Source: a virus
Direction: 5' to 3' (one strand)
Virus genome (UHGV): UHGV-0038737
DNA length: 31,147 bases
Below are positions 1-12,616 of the stretch, one piece after another (position 1 is the stretch's first letter; every line of letters starts with the position of its first letter). Position numbers and translations under genes: made by a program. The notes under the pieces were generated by a model. That model ran no database searches. It worked only from the letters and a program-made list of their open reading frames with translations, and was not told the DNA's origin.

Positions 1-78
1 TGGGCCGATGCTGACCCGTACGTAGCGGCAGGAGTCTATGAACACGTTTCAGTGAAACCATTTAAGAAAGTGTTCTAA
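1..78 (+). CDS. 3' end of an unidentified ORF that begins upstream of the window
   Basis: Frame 1 is open from position 1 to TAA at 76-78 (...WADADPYVAAGVYEHVSVKPFKKVF*), followed by a hairpin at 143-177. Too short to assign a product. Confidence 0.25.
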   Translation, partial: WADADPYVAAGVYEHVSVKPFKKVF

Positions 79-142
79 TTTATTAGAAATTTGCACTTAA
101 ATCAAAAAGTTACGGACAATTCAACCACCAATCAATAAATTA

Positions 143-190
143 AAGGGCACATTAAAGTACACAATATTTGTGCCCTTCTCTGTTTCTTTC
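143..190. terminator. Candidate bidirectional intrinsic terminator between convergent genes
   Basis: Perfect 9-bp inverted repeat AAGGGCACA (143-151) / TGTGCCCTT (169-177), followed on the plus strand by the pyrimidine-rich run CTCTGTTTCTTTCCC and on the minus strand by TAATTTATTGATT. Lies just downstream of the invertase stop (197). Confidence 0.4.
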
Positions 191-196
191 CCGTTA

Positions 197-745
197 TCAG
201 CTAGCTGGAAACTTTTTATACAGAGTTGAGAGCCCTACTCCATACGTTTTTGATACGCTTTGTCGTGATTCACCGGTTGCCATCCGCTCCCCCATTTCCC
301 GCCATTGCTCATCCGTGAACTTAGGCCTGCGACCACCAACTCGCCCTTTTGCCCTGGCTACGGCCAGCCCTGCTAAGGTACGTTCGCTATTAAGATCAGA
401 TTCATATTGTGCTGCGGAAAGGATGTTACGAAAGTTATAGCGGCCGCTGGCTGTTTTGAGATCCACGCCATCGGTAATACTGCGGAAGTTGATACCCTTT
501 TCCTGTAACTGCTGGAACATCAACAGCGCATGCAGAACGTTGCGGCCTATCCTGTCCAGCTTCCAGACCACCAGTTCATCCCCCGGCTGCATAGTGGCGA
601 TCAGCCGTTTTAGAACCGGCCGATTCGATTTCCTCCCGCTGGCATGCTCTTCAAAAATTTTCTCACAACCCGCTGACTTGAGCGCCGTTAGTTGCAATTC
701 AGTGTCCTGGTGGTTTGTTGATACTCGGGCATAACCGTAAATCAT
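197..745 (-). CDS. Serine recombinase, DNA invertase of the Hin/Gin/Cin/Pin family
   Basis: N-terminus MIYGYARVSTNHQDTELQ with catalytic-serine context, resolvase-type core and C-terminal HTH (GESRQSVSKTYGVGLSTLYKKF). ATG at 745 preceded by AGGAG; the six-frame ORF extends to 790 but the internal Met aligns with the family N-terminus. Confidence 0.9.
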   Translation of the reverse strand: MIYGYARVSTNHQDTELQLTALKSAGCEKIFEEHASGRKSNRPVLKRLIATMQPGDELVVWKLDRIGRNVLHALLMFQQLQEKGINFRSITDGVDLKTASGRYNFRNILSAAQYESDLNSERTLAGLAVARAKGRVGGRRPKFTDEQWREMGERMATGESRQSVSKTYGVGLSTLYKKFPAS

Positions 746-749
746 GGGA

Positions 750-776
750 TTTCTCCTGTTATGAAAACAGGAGAAA
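750..776 (-). promoter_or_regulatory. Stem-loop sequestering the invertase Shine-Dalgarno
   Basis: Perfect 11-bp inverted repeat TTTCTCCTGTT / AACAGGAGAAA with a 5-nt loop. On the minus-strand mRNA the AGGAG of the invertase RBS sits in the 3' arm, 4 nt before the ATG at 745. Confidence 0.4.
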
Positions 777-804
777 CGGCGAAGCATCACCAGATTTTTG
801 ATGG

Positions 805-1104
805 TTATAAAAAAGGTTGGTTTGGGAGGGATGGGGCAAACCTATAGCGCATCGCAAGATAACTCCTCAGAACCCTCCCCATGTTACGCAGGATCCAGTA
901 CCGGTTCTCGCTTTCGTTTGTCGTCTTATCGGCGAAGTCCGGCTGGTATCGCTCGATCCATGTATTTGCATCCGCCTGACTGAAATGCCAGTTCCTCTCC
1001 TGCAGTTCAGCGATGAACTTGTCTGTATGCAGACAGAGATAGCCCTTCGGGTTTTGCTGTATGGCCGCAATAAAAGCAGCACGAATATCCGGTTGACGAG
1101 GCAT
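805..1104 (-). CDS. Hypothetical 99-aa protein, divergent from the dinI-like gene and sharing its LexA box
   Basis: ORF MPRQPDIRAAFIAAIQQNPKGYLCLHTDKFIAELQERNWHF... with ATG at 1104 and GAGGG SD about 8 nt upstream. The LexA box lies 26 nt upstream. No family recognised. Confidence 0.5.
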   Translation of the reverse strand: MPRQPDIRAAFIAAIQQNPKGYLCLHTDKFIAELQERNWHFSQADANTWIERYQPDFADKTTNESENRYWILRNMGRVLRSYLAMRYRFAPSLPNQPFL

Positions 1105-1125
1105 AAATGCACCCTCACTCGCTCA

Positions 1126-1154
1126 TTGACTGTATGTATATACAGTAGTATTTT
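1126..1154. promoter_or_regulatory. LexA (SOS) box within a divergent promoter region
   Basis: CTGTATGTATATACAG at 1130-1145 fits the CTGT-N8-ACAG consensus, with flanks gaCTGT...ACAGta. For the plus-strand dinI-like gene it overlaps a candidate -35 TTGACT (1126-1131) and -10 TATTTT (1149-1154). Confidence 0.75.
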
Positions 1155-1203
1155 TATGAAAACAGATCAAGCACAGGCAGTTTTCACTTATAAGAGGATC
1201 GGT

Positions 1204-1443
1204 ATGTTTGTTGAACTGGTTTATGACAAGCGAAATGTTGAGGGGCTCGAAGGGGCCAGGGAGATCATTCTGGCCGAACTGACGAAGCGGGTGCACCAGA
1301 TTTTCCCTGGTGCCGAAGTGAAGGTAAAGCCGATGCAGGCGAACGCGCTAAACAGCAACTGCACGAAAACAGAGAAAGAACGGCTTAATCGTATGCTTGA
1401 AGAGATGTTTGAAGAATCTGACATGTGGCTGGTTGCTGATTAA
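1204..1443 (+). CDS. dinI: DinI-family DNA-damage-inducible protein
   Basis: MFVELVYDKRNVEGLEGAREIILAELTKRVHQIFPGAEVKVKPMQANALN...EEMFEESDMWLVAD matches the DinI pattern as recalled. RBS AAGAGGA; LexA box 59 nt upstream. Only the last 80 codons of the long six-frame ORF 817-1443 are taken as real. Confidence 0.85.
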   Translation: MFVELVYDKRNVEGLEGAREIILAELTKRVHQIFPGAEVKVKPMQANALNSNCTKTEKERLNRMLEEMFEESDMWLVAD

Positions 1444-1459
1444 TTACATATTCACATCA

Positions 1460-1485
1460 CCGGGCAGTCATCCTTTTCTGCCCGG
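1460..1485. terminator. Hairpin between convergent dinI-like and tfa genes (weak terminator candidate)
   Basis: Inverted repeat CCGGGCAG (1460-1467) / CTGCCCGG (1478-1485) with a 10-nt loop. No strong U-tract on either strand. Confidence 0.3.
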
Positions 1486-1500
1486 TTAATGAAAATCACA

Positions 1501-1914
1501 TCACGCTGCGGGTTTTTCAGGCCACTGAATATCTGGCACGGTGATATCCAGCGCGTTCAGCGCATCACTGTAACTCAACCAGGCATGCAGGGCTGCGGTT
1601 TCTGAATCACTCAGTTTCATGCCCACCAGGATTTTTGTCTGCCATACAGAAATAGTCGGAGCGATTTCTGACAGCAACAGCCGCCGTTGATTTTCTGCTA
1701 TCGCCAGCGGGTCCAGTTCTGGCAGTTGTTCAATACGCGGTCCTTTCTCGTCAAATATGCCCGCGAATCCATCGGGAGGATTAAAAAACGCCAGATAGTC
1801 AGCCTCGCTCATCTCTTGCAAGTCCGCAGGTAGTGAGCCAGCCGCTTCATACGCAGACAGCATACCGTTATCGAGGTAAAATCCCTGCGTGCTGATGCTG
1901 TAAAAATATTTCAT
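1501..1914 (-). CDS. tfa: Tail fibre assembly protein (Tfa chaperone)
   Basis: MKYFYSISTQGFYLDNGMLSAYEAAGSLPADLQEMSEADYLAFFNPP... is typical of lambdoid/Mu-type Tfa. Start ATG 1 nt after the tail fibre stop. Confidence 0.85.
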   Translation of the reverse strand: MKYFYSISTQGFYLDNGMLSAYEAAGSLPADLQEMSEADYLAFFNPPDGFAGIFDEKGPRIEQLPELDPLAIAENQRRLLLSEIAPTISVWQTKILVGMKLSDSETAALHAWLSYSDALNALDITVPDIQWPEKPAA

Positions 1915-1915
1915 A

Positions 1916-2797
1916 TCAATACCCCATCACTCTTATATGAAAAAAAGGGACCCAGCCTGTCTGAGGAGTTTTAACGCTGACGGTTAAATATGTTGTTAAT
2001 AGCCCACTGCCATTATCTTTATCTCTGCATGTTTTAACATCAGCATTGTATCCGGGGGTTTGATTTCCAAATCTGTCGCCTGAAATGGACGCAACGGCAG
2101 TAATAATGCCGTTAGGTAATGCGACGGGGAGCGGCACTTTATAGTAGTGCGTATAATACGTAATACCTCCCACTGTCTGAGGGTTGTATGCTCCTACTGC
2201 GATGACGCCACCTATGAGGAAATCCATTTGATAAATATCGCCAATTTTTATCACGCTGGAGTTTGTTCCTGACCTGACATAGGTGATACCCAGATTGGAC
2301 AGCGCGGCGTCTCTGGTTGTCGCCCCGGTCCCTCCCTGGTCAATACTCAATGCTGTACTTAGCCCTTTCAGCTCTGTGATATCGCTATTTGCCCCTTTCC
2401 GGGCGAGACCACCGATGGCAGGAATGCTGAGGCTGGTGCCGTTGATTGTCACAGTGACCAGTTGGTTCGCTGAGGTACTGGCGAACGTTTCCCACGCACC
2501 GATATTCTCGTCATACTCATTGATGAGCTGAGACATGGCCTGTGCCAGTCCATCAACCGAGATAATGTCTGATACCAGAATGCCGTACTTCTGGCCGCTC
2601 AGCGCCGGGGAAGCAGCTGGAGTAACCGTCATTGACGTGGCGCTGTTCACGGATGAAATCTGGAACAGCTGCACCGGGTTAGACATCACGATAATTGTCT
2701 GCCCAGCGCGAACCTGGCTGGCCGGTGCCGTCCAGTTTGTGCCCGTCCCGGTGGCGGTATTTCCATTAATGGCGATGGTGCCGGTGTTATAAAGCAT
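1916..2797 (-). CDS. Side tail fibre protein
   Basis: Contains the conserved fibre motif LSIDQGGTGATTRDAALSNLG and Gly/Thr/Ser-rich beta-type composition. ATG at 2797 with GGAG RBS (the ORF track starts at TTG 2812). A Tfa gene follows directly. Confidence 0.8.
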   Translation of the reverse strand: MLYNTGTIAINGNTATGTGTNWTAPASQVRAGQTIIVMSNPVQLFQISSVNSATSMTVTPAASPALSGQKYGILVSDIISVDGLAQAMSQLINEYDENIGAWETFASTSANQLVTVTINGTSLSIPAIGGLARKGANSDITELKGLSTALSIDQGGTGATTRDAALSNLGITYVRSGTNSSVIKIGDIYQMDFLIGGVIAVGAYNPQTVGGITYYTHYYKVPLPVALPNGIITAVASISGDRFGNQTPGYNADVKTCRDKDNGSGLLTTYLTVSVKTPQTGWVPFFHIRVMGY

Positions 2798-2812
2798 ATT
2801 TTCTCCAGGCAA

Positions 2813-2837
2813 TAAAAAAACCCCGCCGGAGCGAGGT
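2813..2837 (-). terminator. Rho-independent terminator downstream of the lipoprotein gene
   Basis: Minus-strand RNA CCUCGC-UCCG-GCGGGG (one G-U pair) followed by UUUUUUU, 20 nt after the lipoprotein stop. Confidence 0.55.
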
Positions 2838-2857
2838 TTATGTTTAAGCGTAGTGGG

Positions 2858-3091
2858 TTATTTGCAGGTTGTTTCGGTAAATGTATTCGCACTTACCCAG
2901 CGCCAGCTGAAAGGATATCCAGCCCGGTACTGCGTCTGGTTGTTTTGTTTACGCACACCGTAAATCTGAACCGTAGTTTCCTGACCGCCAACGATTGCAG
3001 TGCCGCTGCAAACTGGTTCCTGTTTCTCAATTACGCCAGCGCATCCTGTAAGCATGACAGCGCCTGCCATGCAGATAATCAGTTTTCTCAT
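2858..3091 (-). CDS. Small lipoprotein moron (77 aa), possibly Cor-like
   Basis: Signal peptide MRKLIICMAGAVMLTGC with lipobox LTG-C. Own terminator downstream and a separate AT-rich, repeat-rich upstream region. Embedded between tail genes. Confidence 0.6.
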   Translation of the reverse strand: MRKLIICMAGAVMLTGCAGVIEKQEPVCSGTAIVGGQETTVQIYGVRKQNNQTQYRAGYPFSWRWVSANTFTETTCK

Positions 3092-3202
3092 TTTGATAGT
3101 ATCCAGAGGAATTCAGTATCTTAGACGATACCAATACAATTCTGGTGGGTATAATTGATTGGATAGATCAATATTATGTTATTGATCGCTAAAAACGATC
3201 AA

Positions 3203-10099: not shown

Positions 10100-12616
10100 T
10101 TACCTGCGATTGGTCGCATTCCAGATAAGCCCACCGGGCTGGATTGCCCTGGCGATACCCTCGTTGACAGATTTGTTAATCACCTGCTGATACGCCTTAC
10201 CCAGCCTGTCTCCGTCGTTTTGCTGCTGTGCGTTACCGGAAGCATTCTCGACCGTCACCGGCGCGTACACGCTCACCCCGAAAGGTGCTGCAGCGGGACC
10301 TGTACCACCGCCCCCGACATACCCACCCGTGGCATACCCTTTCATCATCCGGTAAAGATTGCCGACGCCGATCCGGCTGGTAGCCTCTTTGGTGAAAACA
10401 AATTCACCACGGTGAACGACACCTGCAGGTTCATATTTCCCGCCTGAACCGGTATAACCGCCACCTGCAAATCCCAGCGCGGTTGTCGCTGAATCCACCA
10501 GGCCTACCATCGCCTGTTTCAGCAGGATCTGTGTCAGCATGGAGAGCGTGGAGCGGGTGAAGTCAGCCCAGTCAGCCTTACCGCGCGTCAGCATGTCAGC
10601 CATATTTTGCCCGATTCCATCAAACGTACTGGTAGCAGCCGACTTCATCTGGCCATAAGCATCTGAAGCAGAATCAACATAATCTGCCCATGCGGATTTG
10701 GCCCCGGATTGCCAGTCGTCCCGCAGCTTATCCTGCTCGGCGTAATACGCCTGCAGCGCCTGCAACTCATTCTGATAACCAGCGTCGTTCTCCGAACCGC
10801 CACCATTTTTCCACCCCTGAAGAAGCTGGGCCTCCTCGTTGCGGCGTTGTGCTGCACGACTGCTCATACCAGCACTTTCCGCCAGGGCCCTGGTTTTCTC
10901 GCCGATCTGCGTGACGTATTTTTGGGACGTATCCTGCAGGCGGTTAAGCCGCTCCTGCGCCACTATCTGATCGCCAAGCTTCGCGTTCAGCTCTGCACGG
11001 GAAAGCACCTCGCTTTTACTGGCCAGCAGGGATTTTTCCTCAGCAGAAAGCGTCCGGGTCTTCGCGGCCTCTTCCAGAACTGTAAACCGGGACTGTTGAC
11101 GCCACAGCTCCTGACGCTGCTGACTGATGGTGTCATTTATCCCCTTATGCTCCTGCAGGGTGCGCAACTGTGCCTGCAGCTCCAGCGTCTGGGCGCTGGC
11201 CGTATCGGTTGCACGGGCACCTGCGGGGGTTCTGATTGCCGGGGTCTTCTTCGGCTTTTTAAGGGTGTCTTCGTACTCTTTTTTCGCGGCAGCCAGGTTG
11301 ATGTTGTAGTCAGCCTGGAGGATTCGCCCCTCTTTCAGCGCCTTGTTGAGCTCGCTCTGCCTGGCCGTGTATTTCTCCAGTGCCGTCTGCGTTTTGGCAT
11401 AGTTTGCCTGAGCCTGCGCAGCATACTTCTGGCGATCCGATTCCGCAGCCGCTTCGCGCGAAGCATTCTCTTCATTCGCCCTGGCAATTCCCGCCTGCTG
11501 CTGAGCCATGTCCAGCGCCAGCCTGGCCGTTTCGCGATCATTCCAGAATCGGGCGCGGGCCTCATCATTGACATATCGGTCACCTTTACGCAGGTTCCAG
11601 ATTTCATCGGCTTTTTTGAACGCGGCTTCGGCTTTTGCCACCATCTCCTGCGCGGTGTCAGGTCGGCCAATATCGAGGGCTGCATCCCACATCGACTTGA
11701 AGGCGCGCCTCAGGGAGTCCGCTGAAGACTCTATCGTCCCCATATTGTCGCGGATGGCTTTGGTCTGATCGTTGAATCCGGCTGTAGCCGCCTCGTTAGC
11801 CGCCTGCAGTGCGCCAGCCTCATCACCGGCACGCTGCAGCTGCGCCACATGGGCAATCTGTTCTGCGGTAACGTTATGGAACTGCTGGGCCATCGCGATC
11901 AGGCCCGATGTCGGGTCAGTTGCGAGCTTGCCGTAGGCTGCAGCGACTTTCTCCACCGGCACGCCGGAGGCATCAGTAAACCGCGCCACCGCCTGGCTCA
12001 TTTCATCAAAGCGCGAGCCAGTACGCACACCTGCATTGATAAGCTCGGTCAGGGCTTCACTGGTCTGGTTGAACGTTAGCCCCGCTGCCTGTCCGTTCCG
12101 CGCCAGTGCCAGCATGCGGTCAGCTGTCAGTCCGGCTGTGTTCCCCGACAGTACCAGCGTTTTGTTGAAATCAGACAGAGTGGAAGAGCCATGGTACCAG
12201 GCATAGAACAACGCGCCCGTTGCAACGGACAATGCACCAATGCCGACCATCAACGGGGAAATCGTCCCCAGTAACGCCCGGAATGTCGGAATGATCCCGC
12301 CAAAGGAGTCCTTAACCTGACCGCCCTGCTGAAGCAGAATCAGCCAGGGGTTCTGCCCACCCGCCAGCTGCGTGGCCACGTCAGTAAACTGCGCCGGGAG
12401 CATACGCATCGCTGCGTTATACTGACCCACTGAAATACCGGCCTTACGCGCGGCGTTCTCCTGGCGGCTGAAGGACTGCTGGATACGTAACGCTTCATCG
12501 TTTGCCGTATTGCCGGTCTGTTTTAATTCTTTTTTGACGTAGCTGAGCTGCTCGTTGAATTTTGTCGAGTTAACGTCAAGGTTAACGACCAGATCACCGA
12601 CTGCCGTCTGGGCCAT
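10100..12616 (-). CDS. H: Tail tape measure protein H
   Basis: 838 aa, Ala/Gln-rich coiled-coil composition with a Gly-rich C-terminus. Strong AGGAGG RBS. Confidence 0.9.
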   Translation of the reverse strand: MAQTAVGDLVVNLDVNSTKFNEQLSYVKKELKQTGNTANDEALRIQQSFSRQENAARKAGISVGQYNAAMRMLPAQFTDVATQLAGGQNPWLILLQQGGQVKDSFGGIIPTFRALLGTISPLMVGIGALSVATGALFYAWYHGSSTLSDFNKTLVLSGNTAGLTADRMLALARNGQAAGLTFNQTSEALTELINAGVRTGSRFDEMSQAVARFTDASGVPVEKVAAAYGKLATDPTSGLIAMAQQFHNVTAEQIAHVAQLQRAGDEAGALQAANEAATAGFNDQTKAIRDNMGTIESSADSLRRAFKSMWDAALDIGRPDTAQEMVAKAEAAFKKADEIWNLRKGDRYVNDEARARFWNDRETARLALDMAQQQAGIARANEENASREAAAESDRQKYAAQAQANYAKTQTALEKYTARQSELNKALKEGRILQADYNINLAAAKKEYEDTLKKPKKTPAIRTPAGARATDTASAQTLELQAQLRTLQEHKGINDTISQQRQELWRQQSRFTVLEEAAKTRTLSAEEKSLLASKSEVLSRAELNAKLGDQIVAQERLNRLQDTSQKYVTQIGEKTRALAESAGMSSRAAQRRNEEAQLLQGWKNGGGSENDAGYQNELQALQAYYAEQDKLRDDWQSGAKSAWADYVDSASDAYGQMKSAATSTFDGIGQNMADMLTRGKADWADFTRSTLSMLTQILLKQAMVGLVDSATTALGFAGGGYTGSGGKYEPAGVVHRGEFVFTKEATSRIGVGNLYRMMKGYATGGYVGGGGTGPAAAPFGVSVYAPVTVENASGNAQQQNDGDRLGKAYQQVINKSVNEGIARAIQPGGLIWNATNRR

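Follow-up and report, generated by a model that had tools for sequence, protein, structure and literature searches.

The window that we analysed, a stretch of 31,147 nucleotides taken in full, begins in chromosomal DNA and from about position 60 onwards becomes the att end of a lambdoid prophage of the phi80/HK225 kind; matches to HK225 and phi80 both open at position 60, the annotated attP core of both records. Positions 1-76 hold the 3' end of a chromosomal gene (its product ending ...FKKVF before the stop), with the phage/host junction at about 60, and the attP of HK225 resembles yciI according to the HK225 record. The closest complete E. coli genomes are only 98.3-98.4% identical to the window; the prophage of E. 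coli ECCRA-119, for example, matches at 98.3% identity over 25 kb, with an indel of about 285 nt at the window's end. A search of positions 1-3200 against Rfam gave nothing above threshold. The genes and sites that matter for the argument are as follows:

197-745, minus strand: pin-type invertase (Pfam Resolvase and HTH_7; annotations of related records)
749-777, minus strand: 12-bp hairpin between the 99-aa ORF and the pin ATG (folding z = -4.7; IR3 in the phi80 record)
805-830, no strand assigned: hix/pix-like 12+2+12 site, TTATAAAAAAGG TT GGTTTGGGAGGG, at the edge of the pin module
805-1104, minus strand: the 99-aa ORF, identical to HK225 gp29 and a member of PHROG 3893
831-864, minus strand: putative diverged 5' remnant of a humD/umuD'-like gene, of modest similarity, read through as the tail of the ORF
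865-869, minus strand: former TGATG junction between orf79 and the umuD'-like gene, now TGAGG, with the stop out of frame and the ATG destroyed
871-872, minus strand: 2-bp contraction of a T-run, TTTT in HK140 and mEp390 and TT here (alignment with both)
874-1104, minus strand: conserved core, codons 1-77, common to the 79-aa family (family comparison)
1112-1116, minus strand: Shine-Dalgarno sequence GAGGG, 7 nt upstream of the ATG of the ORF
1126-1154, plus strand: dinI promoter TTGACT-17-TATTTT (promoter scan), with the LexA box within its spacer
1130-1145, no strand assigned: LexA operator CTGTATGTATATACAG, a CTGT-N8-ACAG match common to two divergent promoters
1142-1147, minus strand: -10-like hexamer TACTGT of the ORF promoter, lying in the LexA box as two bases plus the left half-box
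1165-1170, minus strand: -35-like hexamer TTGATC of the ORF promoter, 17 nt upstream of the -10
1204-1443, plus strand: dinI-like gene (Pfam DinI, E 5e-22)
1501-1914, minus strand: tail-fibre assembly gene (gene order)
1916-2812, minus strand: tail fibre (gene order)

Our subject is the minus-strand ORF of 99 codons that opens with an ATG at 1104 and closes with a TAA at 805. Judged by comparison it is a real gene and not a chance reading frame, because its product is 100% identical to HK225 gp29, because residues 1-79 match PHROG 3893 (E 2.4e-42), because homologues run to hundreds in Enterobacter, Escherichia, Klebsiella, Salmonella, Citrobacter and Erwinia, and because dN/dS among them is low, with a pairwise median of 0.097 over 1090 comparisons of 103 distinct coding sequences, a value by which the family is under strong purifying selection. 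The family assignment that the earlier note, written from the letters alone, had found wanting is thus supplied by PHROG 3893, whose members are usually 79 aa long (hence orf79, the name that we use for the family) and, at that length, are 62-98% identical to the 99-aa product.

Beyond PHROG 3893, recognised protein families have little to say. Searches of Pfam, NCBIfam and PADLOC with the ORF gave no significant family, orf79 has no Pfam model of its own, and a profile search of PDB sequences returned nothing; the ORF has no Pfam DinI match, unlike its neighbour, and neither it nor the homologues labelled 'DNA polymerase V' match an S24/UmuD' domain in Pfam or NCBIfam. That label, the NCBI/UniRef name on many orf79 homologues (P0153-P0155, P0020, P0117 and others), probably spread from the adjacent umuD'-like gene. 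Searched exhaustively with HMMER, a set of 1.84 billion representatives yielded only 157 hits, nearly all of about 79 aa, and no trustworthy domain fusion; the few longer hits seem either to read through into umuD' after a frameshift or to be low-complexity matches to unrelated sequence, and there is therefore no Rosetta-stone support for an origin of orf79 from a split LexA. A separate curiosity is a set of proteins (P0198 and P0208; locus L049) in which orf79 residues 1 to about 76 continue, without a change of frame, into the HTH_7-bearing C-terminal portion of a Hin/Pin-type invertase; 170 member sequences belong to one of them, and these fusions are deletion products between orf79 and the invertase gene downstream. 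In the literature we found no experiment and no expression data for any member of the family.

On the other strand lies the dinI-like gene, whose coding sequence the HK225 record opens at an upstream in-frame ATG (288 nt; window 1156-1203 region). We think a start at ATG 1204 more likely, because it has an AAGAGGA ribosome-binding site and because the DinI domain match begins with the first residues. A longer plus-strand ORF, 817-1443, is an in-frame upstream extension of the same gene; it is unsupported and was rejected.

What ties the two divergent genes together is the near-consensus LexA box at 1130-1145 (with its flanks, GACTGTATGTATATACAGTA), for which shuffled sequence gives a chance expectation of 0.34 matches to CTGT-N8-ACAG per window, and whose equivalents are annotated as LexA sites in phiKO2 and P1. 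The window holds a second match to the pattern, CTGTGTTCCCCGACAG at 12136-12151 inside structural genes, which is probably a chance match because its GC-rich centre is unlike that of LexA boxes. The operator lies 25 nt from the ATG of the ORF and between the divergent genes, just as the earlier note had it when it described the ORF and the dinI-like gene as sharing an SOS box. How general this arrangement is can be judged from a survey of 137 loci, made up of 57 from one-genome-per-species contigs and 80 from viral contigs. A LexA box stands 13-26 nt before the orf79 start in 51 of 56 genome loci (42 perfect, nine with one mismatch) and, always perfect, in 76 of 80 viral ones, and it precedes orf79 also in six diverse phages and an IncX3 plasmid; together with a -10 that falls inside the operator, these counts bear out the same note's description of the ORF as SOS-timed. 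Divergent dinI, by comparison, accompanies 67 of 80 viral loci and only nine of 55 genome loci, so that the dinI-like gene is an optional neighbour across the family. The box is kept at 42 of the 46 genome loci that have no dinI, and the operator therefore belongs to orf79 at least as much as to dinI.

The promoter elements tell much the same story. The hexamer TACTGT occurs in 98 of 110 distinct upstream regions of orf79, and TTGATC, at a spacing of 16-18 nt, in 88 of them, while the spacer itself varies in sequence. The ORF has this family layout, with the box at 25 nt and a TTGATC-17-TACTGT promoter; the generic promoter scan did not list that promoter because its score of 8/12 on the minus strand falls just under the threshold. 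Its absence from the generic scan does count somewhat against our reading of the locus; nonetheless, the layout makes the ORF a predicted member of the LexA (SOS) regulon, one that would be induced in the SOS response.

The second constant companion of orf79 is the gene that follows it. In HK140, mEp390, Klebsiella phage RCIP0114 and two Erwinia phages, a UmuD-like gene lies directly 3' of orf79, and in the survey a UmuD'-like gene comes next at 48 of 55 genome and 54 of 60 viral loci, or about 89% of the informative loci. The two cistrons are usually locked together by a 1-nt overlap of stop and start (TGATG), found at 36 of the 48 genome and 51 of the 54 viral loci with a partner. For the HK140 partner, the NCBIfam HumD equivalog model returns 222 bits, over its cutoff of 120, and identity to P1 HumD, N15 gp26 and phiKO2 gp23 is 65-69%. 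All orf79 partners share the N-terminus MGFPSPA, which we take to be that of E. coli UmuD' after cleavage between Cys24 and Gly25, so that the HumD-like partner begins exactly at the UmuD cleavage point. P1 HumD functionally replaces UmuD', according to the note in the P1 record and to McLenigan et al. (1999) as cited in PMC11541004. The occurrence of the two genes is asymmetric, in that humD is often found without orf79 and orf79 only rarely without a UmuD'-like gene, and it is on account of this asymmetry and of the stop/start overlap that we argue for a functional link between orf79 and HumD.

The nature of any such link is constrained by what orf79 has been joined to. Near-identical orf79 alleles precede two unrelated UmuD'-like bodies, a HumD type of 129 aa and a type of 106 aa, and conservation of the cassette starts at the promoter and ends about 15 codons into umuD'; any contact made by orf79 would therefore involve the N-terminal arm or else an independent host target. 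The shorter partners, of 105-107 aa (for example L006 2740-3060 and L004 2740-3057; the mEp390 and Klebsiella types), keep the MGFPSPA..DY.EQR arm and are without the GDSM serine motif. They score below the cutoffs of the HumD and S24 models, and may not act as classical UmuD'. In a few lineages an intact orf79 has no UmuD'-like gene at all. Three viral loci (L084, L090 and L100, from about 3503 onwards) offer a variant of their own, in which the 79-aa orf79 is intact and has both its LexA box and dinI, and in which a full flagellin gene (Flagellin_N/C) stands 263 nt downstream in place of humD; flagellin beside a Pin/Hin-type module recalls the hin-fljB arrangement.

It is against this background that the window departs from the family. 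With two bases lost at 871-872, the reading frame changes two codons short of the family stop, and the former junction, now TGAGG, no longer has its stop in frame and has lost the start of the partner. Beyond this broken junction a weak similarity continues for about 35 nt; no humD cistron follows, and the pin-type invertase takes its place downstream of the ORF. From about 828 downwards the window carries a pin module common to phi80 and mEp237, both of which are without orf79. Residues 80-99 are accordingly a 20-aa out-of-frame tail that stems from the frameshift and the pin junction, and since the ORF ends in the hix/pix-like site, that tail is a chimeric read-through. The site at 805-830, which encodes the last eight codons and the stop, lies 60 nt upstream of pin, and it agrees at 18 of 26 positions with the reverse complement of what we take to be the hixL sequence. 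The crossover site of an invertase joins different DNA, and homology is expected to stop there; homology to the pin modules of phi80 and mEp237 does break off inside 805-830. By a crude half-site score the site outranks all others in the window, yet it does no better than shuffles, and we found no convincing partner crossover site within the window, so we call the site hix/pix-like, a candidate crossover site that is supported by the homology breakpoint and not by the score. Between the ORF and pin, the hairpin at 749-777 buries the pin Shine-Dalgarno sequence AGGAG, and it could limit pin translation or read-through from the SOS promoter.

The ORF in the window is thus the orphaned first cistron of a broken SOS module. 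It retains intact signals for expression (promoter, operator and ribosome-binding site) and an intact fold-forming core, and it differs from the nearest 79-aa alleles by just 1-4 non-synonymous and 3-6 synonymous changes. The arrangement is rare: among the 137 loci it occurs at the HK225 locus only, and the identical 99-aa form is found in two of 5426 complete E. coli genomes. The same 20-aa tail is also found on a divergent, Klebsiella-type core (P0119), and the arrangement has therefore spread. As an orphan, the ORF may still be made on SOS induction and could act in trans with the host's UmuD', or it could be decaying.

Some idea of what the protein might do comes from its predicted structure. 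An AlphaFold2 model built on an alignment of 62 sequences (38-94% identity) reached a pLDDT of 80 and a pTM of 0.71, with residues 1-70 above 88 and the tail at a low 46-67. The predicted elements (helices at 4-14, 27-36 and 43-53, strands at 23-26, 57-59 and 69-72) follow the H1-S1-H2-H3-S2-S3 topology of a winged helix, which is the fold that we predict for orf79. Foldseek returned from BFVD only the HK225 protein itself, and from the PDB no hit below E 0.03; the structural neighbours of the model are all winged-helix domains, and many of them belong to transcription factors. The core is near neutral (pI 6.7), the tip of the wing is acidic and the putative recognition helix, QADANTWIERY, is largely non-basic. 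For the modelled protein DNA binding is possible, though not indicated by the charge of the core.

The family is not confined to phages. With tblastn, orf79 homologues turned up on 1045 plasmid records, 947 of them conjugative, and the IncX3 backbones that we examined carry, in order, a resolvase gene, a LexA box, an orf79-like gene and an S24 'umuD' gene. In the blaNDM-5 plasmids examined, ISKox3 interrupts the operator in its left half and the S24 gene is cut short by IS26; in NZ_CP021836.1 the LexA box is intact. The plasmid loci in question are L154, L155 and L156, of the IncX3 and IncC/IncFIB types.

Modules of this general kind are familiar, and the comparison with them is instructive. 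In P1, an annotated LexA site separates lxr from a divergent humD; in phiKO2, an annotated LexA site lies between dinI (gp22) and umuD' (gp23), with dinI divergent as in the window; N15 has a humD-type gp26 and no annotated LexA site. These elements share with the orf79 module a UmuD'-type gene and, in P1 and phiKO2, a single LexA operator beside it, divergent genes and a place in an accessory region. None of the three has orf79, which is therefore best seen as an optional addition to a known module, a winged-helix first cistron set between operator and humD; the window itself, of course, has lost humD. The ImpC protein encoded by impCAB-type plasmid operons is DinI-like. Those operons, which are listed in PMC11541004 from Lodwick et al. 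(1990), resemble the orf79 module in placing a small cistron before a umuD homologue, within an SOS operon of a mobile element, but orf79 differs in having no DinI match, a predicted winged helix and no umuC homologue after it. Acinetobacter offers a further analogy in UmuDAb and its small co-repressor DdrR, a UmuD-family protein with an SOS-specific partner, although that pair is chromosomal and Acinetobacter-specific and UmuDAb has a DNA-binding N-terminus of its own (PMC11332147). Small winged-helix co-regulators of the PapI/PefI type are another close known system.

The systems that the earlier note had in mind were the Gifsy prophages of Salmonella, and its account of how they work was correct. 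Antirepressors of the Gifsy type (GfoA, GftA, FsoA) bind their repressor and free it from DNA. The Gifsy operons run from a LexA box through dinI and the antirepressor gene to irsA, on one strand and 1.3 kb downstream of the replication genes, and their repressors are not cleaved on induction (PMC3121763). The likeness to Gifsy-1, -2 and -3 (GfoA, GftA and GfhA) consists of a LexA box, a dinI homologue, an ORF of about 70-80 aa and a lambdoid prophage around them; 186 Tum, in turn, is a small protein with a LexA-repressed promoter whose -10 overlaps the operator. The analogy is not borne out at this locus. The Gifsy operon is a same-strand unit downstream of replication genes, whereas our ORF is divergent from dinI, lies near tail fibres and att, has no irsA homologue beside it and belongs to a family that normally heads a humD operon. 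Tum has a DinI-like C-terminal half and binds the 186 CI, while the ORF has neither a DinI domain nor any similarity to Tum; the homology search against known antirepressors that had been proposed gave, with hhalign and the family profile, a probability of 0.1% for Gifsy-2 GftA and of 0.1% for Tum. The window's own repressor lies outside the window, but HK225 and the ECCRA-119 prophage both encode the identical 99-aa protein; their CI repressors are unrelated to each other and, where Gifsy-type repressors are short and non-cleavable, both combine an HTH with an S24 domain that has cleavage motifs (257 aa with HTH and Peptidase_S24, motifs CGDG and GDSM and a downstream Lys in HK225; 236 aa with HTH_3 and Peptidase_S24, motifs QAG, GESM and FKKL in ECCRA-119). 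In addition, the presence of the module on conjugative plasmids makes a phage repressor a less likely target.

We therefore come to the reading that we favour and hold to be probable, if well short of settled: the ORF encodes a LexA-repressed small winged-helix protein, the orphaned first cistron of a mobile-element SOS module (dinI/orf79/humD) that is carried as cargo for tuning the SOS response or translesion synthesis. In the canonical module, a single LexA operator covers the -10 of the TTGATC-17-TACTGT promoter, which would drive a bicistron of orf79 and, through the TGATG overlap, the HumD/UmuD'-like gene, with dinI often transcribed divergently from the same operator. Upon DNA damage, RecA-stimulated cleavage of LexA would derepress both promoters, and the orf79 protein would be made alongside DinI and, where the module is intact, alongside a pre-activated homologue of UmuD'. 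As cargo it would then act on a conserved host or partner protein, perhaps on the N-terminal arm of a UmuD'-type protein or on some other component of the SOS response; we do not suppose the phage's own repressor to be the target. There are points that sit less comfortably with this. P1 HumD works without orf79 (McLenigan et al. 1999, as cited in PMC11541004), the joining of orf79 alleles to unrelated UmuD'-like bodies, or to none, means that a physical partnership may not exist, and the near-neutral core and acidic wing neither support nor exclude DNA binding.

The alternative that fares best, one that we think unlikely yet take seriously, is that the ORF is a dead relic, its 99-aa product unstable or useless after the loss of humD and the frameshift, with too little time since the event for the ORF to have disappeared. 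A shifted frame, a lost humD start and a chimeric tail modelled with low confidence are what such a relic should look like, and the rarity of the 99-aa form fits as well. A relic would be harder to reconcile with a core, ribosome-binding site, promoter and operator that are all intact, with the few non-synonymous differences from the nearest 79-aa alleles, or with the spread of the same tail to a Klebsiella-type core.

A somewhat less probable idea is that orf79 is an autonomous SOS-induced DNA-binding regulator, which would switch phage, plasmid or host genes independently of HumD. The winged-helix neighbours, many of them transcription factors, would suit it, as would the persistence of intact orf79 in several lineages that have no UmuD'-like gene and the pairing of near-identical alleles with unrelated UmuD'-like bodies. 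The charge of the core, of the wing tip and of the putative recognition helix is nevertheless not what one would look for in such a protein, the LexA box is the sole conserved palindrome in the regulatory region, and the linkage to a UmuD'-like gene, in most cases through a stop/start overlap, speaks against a role apart from HumD.

More speculative still, and in our judgement distinctly improbable, is the notion that orf79 is an unrecognised SOS effector of lambdoid phages and IncX3 plasmids that works through UmuD-family S24 proteins: either as a separate half, for recognition of DNA or of a target, of a two-polypeptide, LexA- or UmuDAb-like regulator, with the HumD-like protein as the other half, or as a modulator of Pol V assembly by way of the MGFPSPA arm.

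Least likely of all, and very improbable in our eyes, is the earlier note's proposal of an SOS-induced antirepressor, a small protein that would bind the prophage repressor and trigger induction like GfoA/GftA or Tum: a small LexA-controlled protein beside a dinI homologue is what Gifsy and 186 have, a near-neutral winged helix could be a protein binder and antirepressors are known to act across phages (PMC3121763), but these points are outweighed by the missing profile similarity to GftA and Tum, the un-Gifsy-like gene order, strand and location, the usual co-translation with humD, the two unrelated and apparently cleavable CI repressors that accompany the identical protein, and the roughly 1000 plasmid records, mostly conjugative and including IncX3, on which the module is also found.

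For the window itself, our result is mainly corrective, in that the ORF is an orphaned piece of a module and very probably not a prophage induction switch. For the family as a whole, LexA-controlled dinI/humD cargo on phages and plasmids was already known, with a purpose that is poorly understood; what is new is a third conserved and unstudied component that many of these modules have as the first gene after the LexA operator, and that is co-translated with the UmuD' homologue. It has spread through hundreds of enterobacterial prophages and into the IncX3 backbone, including the blaNDM-5 and blaSHV-11 plasmids that we examined. If orf79 does tune SOS mutagenesis or the SOS response, it would bear on how mobile elements control the supply of mutations under DNA-damaging antibiotics.
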